Positions 5,612 to 6,007 of a DNA stretch of 64,000 bases are shown here, one piece after another; position 1 is the first letter of the stretch; each line of letters opens with the position of its first letter. Both the position numbers and the translations under genes were made by a program. Below the pieces are notes generated by a model, which was given only the letters and a program-made list of their open reading frames with translations, did no database searches and was not told where the DNA came from. This stretch comes from Podarcis erhardii (lineage: Eukaryota). The stretch lies in assembly GCA_964252035.1 (NCBI GenBank), contig OZ176205.1. One strand, given 5' to 3'.

Positions 5612-6007
5612 TGTGATGGGATAGTGAGCTGCTTGTGCGTAAAAGCTTGATCCCTCTGGGGTTTGGCTGCTCATCCAAACCGATGCACTAACGGAGCCCC
5701 CAAAGCATGACTCCATCAGTCGCTGGTAGAATCTGACAGTGGGCGTCTACGGAATTTACGCCAACATAAAAGCTCTTTGACAGACATGCGCTTTCGAGAC
5801 TCTCTGCGTGACAGTTTCCGGCGAAGGGTGGGCGTTCCCAACGGGGGTCCCGTTACCTCTCCACTACTCTCACTGGAAGCATCCCAGAGCCTCCCCTCCG
5901 CTGTGACTCCTGCACTCCCCCTGCTGGTTCCCTCTTCTACTGCAGATTCTCTCCTATTTTCCTGTAGCCTGTCCACCACCTGTCTCTCCGATGGCAGTTC
6001 CCTGACA
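5612..6007 (-). repeat. 3' LTR
   Basis: Matches 10701-11096 except at 3 positions; preceded on the minus strand by the PPT. Confidence 0.97.

Follow-up and report, generated by a model that had tools for sequence, protein, structure and literature searches.

Can the long terminal repeat (LTR) of a vertebrate retrotransposon encode a selected part of the integrase? This question is raised by a stretch of 64,000 nucleotides of Podarcis erhardii DNA (contig OZ176205.1 of assembly GCA_964252035.1), hereafter the window, the minus strand of which carries a young, full-length LTR element whose LTR pair differs by three mismatches. In this element, U3 and probably the start of R in the 3′ LTR encode the tail of Pol behind the integrase, a tail under purifying selection at the protein level, and we propose, with a probability of roughly 0.6, that it would serve nuclear entry of the integration complex and its hold on chromatin.

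Layout of the element and continuity of its pol frame

The features of the window, in element order and with window coordinates, are the following.

11097-11101 and 5607-5611: 5-bp target duplication of the element
10701..11096, minus strand: 5′ LTR, 396 bp, three mismatches relative to the 3′ LTR
10819..10829, minus strand: predicted self-primer, presumed 5′ end of the transcript (first 11 nt, start of R) and perfectly complementary to the primer-binding site (PBS)
10688..10698, minus strand: self-priming PBS
9638..10654, minus strand: gag (Retrotrans_gag, Ty3_capsid, zf-CCHC)
6429..9842, minus strand: pol (PR, RT, RNase H, IN, SH3), broken near 6438 in the window copy
6280..6426, minus strand: chromodomain retaining a single aromatic residue of the three-residue cage (Pfam Chromo, E 1.9e-10; omega 0.095)
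6199..6258, minus strand: TIM-like motif 1, with a hydrophobic segment, an 8-aa acidic S/T linker and FxGF (omega 0.11)
6073..6126, minus strand: TIM-like motif 2, with a hydrophobic segment, a 9-aa acidic S/T linker and FxGF (omega 0.13)
6008..6030, minus strand: polypurine tract (PPT), read through in frame
5612..6007, minus strand: 3′ LTR, 396 bp
5716..6006, minus strand: LTR-encoded integrase tail, 96 codons and stop
5740..5808, minus strand: conserved core of the tail (two basic clusters on either side of a short predicted helix with Cys-Trp at its end), which fits a bipartite NLS pattern
5761-5781, minus strand: the short predicted helix ending in Cys-Trp (pLDDT about 61)
5730..5740, minus strand: self-primer sequence as repeated in the 3′ LTR, where it overlaps the final codons
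2139..2572, plus strand: solo LTR of subfamily B1, with frame 2140-2469 open (109 codons and stop)
23249..23703, minus strand: solo LTR of subfamily C, with frame 23702-23373 open (109 codons and stop)

Pfam recognises gag, PR, RT, RNase H, integrase, SH3 and chromodomain in the element, whose PR-RT-RH-IN order, closed by a chromodomain at the C-terminal end of the integrase, is that of the chromoviruses (Ty3/gypsy). The nearest named proteins are Podarcis muralis UniRef entries, annotated automatically, which end in the same tail. A first-pass annotation of this DNA had assigned the element to a lizard chromovirus lineage, in agreement with both observations. It had also described a frame (6474-5716) crossing the PPT, and this crossing was confirmed, with 96 sense codons and a TGA within the 3′ LTR. 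The two solo LTRs, each flanked by its own 5-bp duplication, belong to subfamilies related to that of the main element; as described, both start with VRELPS, carry the shared motif and stop at the homologous TGA. The distance from LTR start to stop is 331 nt in the solo LTRs versus 292 nt in the main LTR, hence 39 nt longer. The coding frame stayed open in 2% of dinucleotide shuffles of the main LTR and in 0.35-18% of those of 21 subfamilies taken singly, and among the other forward frames of the 21 subfamily LTRs only one out of 42 was open.

The terminal frame had been regarded as an ORF of its own ('ORF3'). It is instead the integrase tail of Pol, severed by a frameshift in the window copy. 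When the lizard's own genome was searched with the 48 terminal residues, 150 of 7405 candidates proved to be identical matches; of these 150, 56 fall within a 1376-aa frame and none within a 252-aa frame. One copy (L091) has a single frame from the protease to the LTR stop, and reading from the SH3 domain to the LTR is uninterrupted at all 15 3′-LTR loci found among L001-L030. Intact copies encode one 1376-aa Pol, the end of which is the LTR-coded tail.

The integrase tail and its proposed role

AlphaFold predicted a well-folded chromodomain, low confidence for the rest of the tail (predicted disordered) and a helix at the Cys-Trp motif. When aligned with HP1, the chromodomain retains only the middle Trp of the cage and thus departs from the type I chromodomains, which have three aromatics; the first and third aromatics are missing in every alignment row that covers them (14 and 15 of 15 rows, respectively). 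Plant type II chromodomains likewise lack cage aromatics.

Two TIM-like motifs are located between the chromodomain and the PPT. In the accessible part of a review on LEDGF/HRP2 partners (PMC9987994), a TIM (TND-interacting motif, or IBM) is defined as an obligate short helix with F/V/L/I anchors, followed by an acidic linker of 8-16 residues, rich in D/E/S/T/G and with CK2 sites, and by FxGF, the latter being carried by all known partners. The linkers of the lizard motifs, 8 and 9 residues long, contain S/T-x-x-D/E and precede FxGF. Among 34 distinct linkers, 29 harbour two motifs, two harbour one and three harbour none, against one TIM in 136 and two in none of 50000 shuffles; a literature-based rule catches both motifs, and a stricter pattern caught motif 2 alone. 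The pattern was absent from the rest of Pol, from the distant family M described below and from a fungal relative. The first Phe of motif 1 is replaced by Leu or Met in most P. muralis proteins. The hydrophobic anchors of the motifs are conserved; for the chain in isolation, AlphaFold draws no helix at either of them. Exons of the LEDGF/HRP2-family IBD are present in the genome, as separate exons. Given the TIM pattern and the selection acting on it, we consider it quite probable that these motifs tether the integration complex to LEDGF/HRP2.

With regard to the LTR-coded part, 21 subfamilies extend the frame by 69-212 codons beyond the LTR boundary, always in a single phase, and the tails have basic residues and a hydrophobic pattern in common. 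All 21 carry a Trp with an adjacent Cys (before the Trp in 19, after it in two D-type tails), and 19 have R or K (R in 18, K in one) nine residues ahead of the Trp; these counts are conditional, as selection of the 21 tails required an LxCW-like match. The invariant Trp and the hydrophobic pattern are found even in tails less than 30% identical to that of the window. Of 30 SH3 loci sampled without this filter, 27 were assigned to this clade by eye and three to family K, the single open copy of which stops short of the LTR.

A classical bipartite NLS consists of two basic residues, a spacer of 10-12 residues and a group of five of which three are basic. Such a pattern occurs in 16 of the 21 subfamilies, including that of the window, versus 6.1 expected from shuffles, and fails in the other five, including both D-type tails; the NLS-like basic motif attributed to the LTR in the first-pass annotation is consistent with these counts. 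The CENP-C motif, a nucleosome anchor the core of which is RxxxxPxxYW in the available text of PMC4830207, shows the same Arg-to-Trp spacing of nine, but its Pro and Tyr are found in none of the 21 tails, which thus do not carry this core. On the basis of the bipartite pattern and the CENP-C-like Arg-Trp spacing, the odds somewhat favour a role of the LTR-coded motif in nuclear import or as a nucleosome anchor.

Two other functions have to be weighed. The motif may resemble acylated helices, and it could be a membrane anchor in which a polybasic amphipathic helix with an S-acylated Cys fixes Pol or the particle to a membrane, that of the nuclear envelope or a different one. The occurrence of Cys on either side of the Trp, adjoining it in 21/21 tails, is easier to reconcile with a modification site than with a rigid contact, and the tails have a net charge of +5 to +11, with a hydrophobic moment of 0.38-0.61 in 10 of 11 F-J tails. 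This moment is, however, just 0.05-0.18 in the A and B tails, the window's included, and the adjoining chromodomain and FxGF motifs suggest a nuclear role, so we regard membrane anchoring as unlikely. Marginally less likely still is a non-specific binder of nucleic acids (cDNA ends, target DNA or element RNA) for which positive charge would be sufficient. The strongly basic composition, the predicted disorder and the position at the end of the integrase are all compatible with it, but charge alone leaves unexplained why a hydrophobic pattern and an invariant Trp persist in such divergent tails.

Returning to nuclear import and chromatin anchoring, we can propose the following scheme. Pol would be made with a long disordered tail behind the integrase, comprising the degenerate chromodomain, the two TIMs and the LTR-coded stretch, and this tail would remain attached to the integrase following protease cleavage. 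The basic clusters flanking the helix may act as a bipartite NLS and/or as an arginine anchor on nucleosomes, while the two FxGF motifs would bind the TND (IBD) of LEDGF or HRP2. Such a contact could steer insertion to gene bodies marked by H3K36me, the TIMs replacing a chromodomain that lost its methyl-lysine cage. The same DNA would double as att site (first codons) and self-primer (last codons).

Database searches returned few relatives of this region. Neither the tail nor the TIM region was matched in Pfam or Atlas, and PDB gave nothing meaningful for either; the only Atlas matches, below 0.9, were to the chromodomain, which was also the sole Foldseek match. A protein search with the tail yielded three matches among 389 candidates, all from P. 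muralis, and none among 110 short candidates, and a scan of 1.84 billion sequences yielded one true relative and one compositional match. As an IN/chromo search of the same collections found only five, vertebrate retrotransposon proteins seem to be sparsely represented in them. LxCxE, PxVxL and PIP-box patterns did not fit by eye.

Selection and DNA-level constraint in the LTR

Selection was assessed between six subfamilies (A, A2, A3, B1, B2 and C) on 75 distinct open natural copies, with at most eight used per subfamily; since A, B1 and C all occur in the window, the three pairs that they form are independent of the search method. For the last 48 codons, pN/pS ranges from 0.13 to 0.40 in 15/15 subfamily pairs, against 0.84-5.0 in frames +1/+2. 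Maximum likelihood estimates of omega were obtained with a custom GY94 codon model, a fixed tree and 10 related copies, on which the P values depend. They amount to 0.18 for the last 48 codons (p 1e-22; 1.76 and 3.16 in the shifted frames) and to 0.17 for the U3 part alone (p 7e-21), which evolves at a normal overall rate and gives 1.7 and 3.3 in frames +1/+2. The conserved core reaches 0.14 and the variable middle of the LTR-coded tail 0.43, and across regions the shifted frames give 1.5-3.3. The absence of purifying selection had been named as a result that would overturn a protein-coding LTR; with dN/dS of 0.18 in this frame and above 1.5 in the others, the comparison indicates that the constraint on the last 48 codons acts on the protein.

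Both ends of the frame behave differently. The first seven codons show near-zero synonymous change with an omega indistinguishable from 1 (p 0.22), which points to constraint on att DNA, so VRELPS, previously counted as a protein feature, does not serve as protein evidence. Together with the last nine codons, they evolve at one third of the usual rate, which fits DNA or RNA roles, namely att site for the first codons and primer for the last. The final codons contain an 11-nt stretch exactly complementary to the sequence that directly follows the 5′ LTR, and primer and PBS covary, with perfect complements of 10-12 nt in 11/11 elements representing eight different sequences. The predicted leader fold pairs primer with PBS (z -3.39; 2/200 shuffles as good). 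From the primer position, the last 25 nt of the frame would belong to R, and transcription would start within the last nine codons. The distance between the Trp and the primer is nearly fixed (20-26 nt, and 20 nt in 8/11 elements), so that the invariance of Cys-Trp may be due in part to promoter DNA.

Could conservation then operate on DNA or RNA (promoter, att, self-primer), with the open frame as passive read-through? The near absence of synonymous change in the first seven codons, the slow rate of both ends and the position of the Trp codon, 20-26 nt ahead of the inferred start site in 11/11 elements tested, would be expected from such a situation. The U3 part alone, at its normal rate, nevertheless combines the low omega of this frame with values above 1 in the other two; furthermore, the Leu and Cys codons show synonymous switches from one subfamily to another, and all 21 length classes share one phase. 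We therefore consider passive read-through improbable as a general explanation: it is largely refuted for the core, and may apply to the single Trp codon and the two ends. The proposal that the LTR acts at once as att site, self-primer source and protein-coding sequence is thus upheld, with purifying selection on the latter.

The same annotation had viewed each solo LTR as a coding module left in the genome. The LTR frame opens without an ATG, and the LTR's own promoter would not transcribe it, as the inferred start lies within its last nine codons; solo LTRs are thus probably unable to express the module, contrary to that view. The LTR start (window 6002-6007, and the starts of the solo LTRs) reads CAG/G, which resembles a splice acceptor, and a solo LTR frame could in principle be exonised through this site. 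AATAAA was not seen in the family A LTR (window 5612-5715), and D- and F-type LTRs have one past the stop.

The frame junction seen in the window exists at two places genome-wide, and the alternative form is found in contigs from 4/4 public runs. Given this rarity and the continuous frame of intact copies, the break of the window copy near 6438 is ascribed to a small deletion that shifts the frame within a purine repeat. That 'ORF3' might be a separate chromodomain-plus-tail protein made by stop-restart, as the pol stop overlaps the ATG opening the chromodomain frame both here and in a second copy, is very improbable in view of the restriction of this junction to those two copies, the continuity of Pol in intact copies, other subfamilies and P. 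muralis proteins, and the other junction form in all four runs. As a trait of the family, a separate ORF3 is refuted; the two junction copies themselves might yield a 238-aa product. Near-identical pieces of window 5612-6600 were noticed, at low depth (3-33), in runs labelled as three other organisms, and could reflect related species, contamination or transfer.

Relation to known systems and to families D and M

The lizard element shares with the Tf1/sushi (Amn-san) chromoviruses of vertebrates the gag and PR-RT-RH-IN-chromodomain order, overlapping gag/pol frames, a CCHC motif in Gag, a 5-bp duplication and a self-priming PBS complementary to LTR sequence, and probably belongs with them. It differs by its degenerate chromodomain cage and by a long integrase tail with FxGF and 69-212 LTR codons, which the available text on Tf1/sushi elements does not mention.

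Retroviral nef, sag and bel are separate accessory genes overlapping U3. The analogy drawn with them in the first-pass annotation stands as far as coding sequence overlaps U3, but here this sequence is the end of Pol, which makes the comparison loose. A closer parallel exists within Ty3/gypsy itself, where only short pol/LTR overlaps had been supposed: in plant CRM group A, the CR targeting motif of the integrase (CHDCR) is encoded in the 3′ LTR, according to the available text of PMC3059260 and PMC3605345. A long functional overlap was therefore already known in this group. CRM elements are primed by tRNA (tRNA-Met PBS) and lost the chromodomain on gaining the CR motif, whereas the lizard element keeps a chromodomain upstream of the PPT, self-primes and inhabits a vertebrate; on these features it is not a CRM. 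Beyond this precedent for a coding LTR, the lizard element adds selection that could be measured, a motif shared across the clade and motifs of the LEDGF type, and it parallels CRM in showing that an LTR in a vertebrate element can carry a selected protein motif atop its att, promoter and primer functions.

The tandem TIM-like FxGF motifs are a stronger lead than the coding LTR. HIV uses LEDGF to choose its integration sites. The LEDGF/HRP2 binders IWS1, JPO2, POGZ, MLL1 and ASK show the same succession of hydrophobic segment, acidic linker and FxGF, in tandem in the case of JPO2 (PMC9987994, available text); the lizard motifs differ in belonging to a retrotransposon integrase, in which they are predicted ligands. 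Under viral mimicry, the accessible part of that review names lentiviral integrases only, and these bind LEDGF/HRP2 through a folded core domain, according to the text available from PMC5053271. In the literature searched, as far as its text was available, neither the lizard tail nor TIMs in the integrase of a retrotransposon are described, and the paper with FxGF that a further search returned concerns JIL-1; subscription papers, Repbase, Dfam or GyDB may note the overlap. Should the FxGF motifs indeed bind LEDGF/HRP2, the lizard element would provide, within that literature, the first retrotransposon integrase using the host TIM code, and target choice by vertebrate chromoviruses whose chromodomain is degenerate would have an explanation open to testing.

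Two other young families were noted in the genome. Family D (L198:447-1082; L095/L109) has a 1541-aa Pol extending 212 codons into a 770-bp LTR; all three cage residues are missing from its chromodomain, and its one FxGF fails the strict TIM rule. One of its copies is nested within a B-type element. Family M is a distant chromovirus with a single gag-pol ORF of 1624/1632 aa, which enters a 642-bp LTR for 117 codons in the same phase as the A-J clade (L289:6468-6822). Its chromodomain keeps all three cage aromatics and it has no TIM. Its LTR tail is devoid of the Cys-Trp motif and contains RRSARL in 15/20 loci with a chromodomain frame, resembling the HMGN acidic-patch motif RRSARLSA (bioRxiv 10.1101/2025.01.06.631586, available text), a likeness that concerns family M and not the window's element. 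The separation of the A-J clade from M and K is the sole use made of an element tree built from this study's sequences, in which rows D and G3 are absent and row G2 took in a nested A-type copy. Families A, with the motifs, and M, without them, are both young and share one genome, and thus provide a natural comparison.

Taken broadly, a reading that we favour by a narrow measure is that a clade of vertebrate LTR retrotransposons converged on the lentiviral strategy, with TIMs recruiting LEDGF/HRP2, an LTR-encoded nuclear or nucleosome anchor and lizard chromovirus LTRs that would be evolving cassettes of integrase-targeting motifs. According to this reading, the integrase may have given up methyl-lysine reading and gained two TIMs mimicking the host, and the cassette would be a Cys-Trp helix in one clade and an HMGN-like motif in another.

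A few minor observations concern the surroundings. Many old, nested or full-length copies from the family searches sit on one contig (C19), which may be a repeat-rich chromosome, for example a sex chromosome. The locus L249:679-1866 is a host gene made of one exon, likely TCEANC, in which a TFIIS N-terminal domain is combined with a zinc ribbon at the C-terminus. Within the window, no host exon was detected among 64 ORFs, save for one match below the cutoff. A SINE-like repeat occurs there in several copies (574-931, 5168-5482, 19086-19414, 21055-21259 and 34088-34901), those at 34088-34901 forming an inverted pair.
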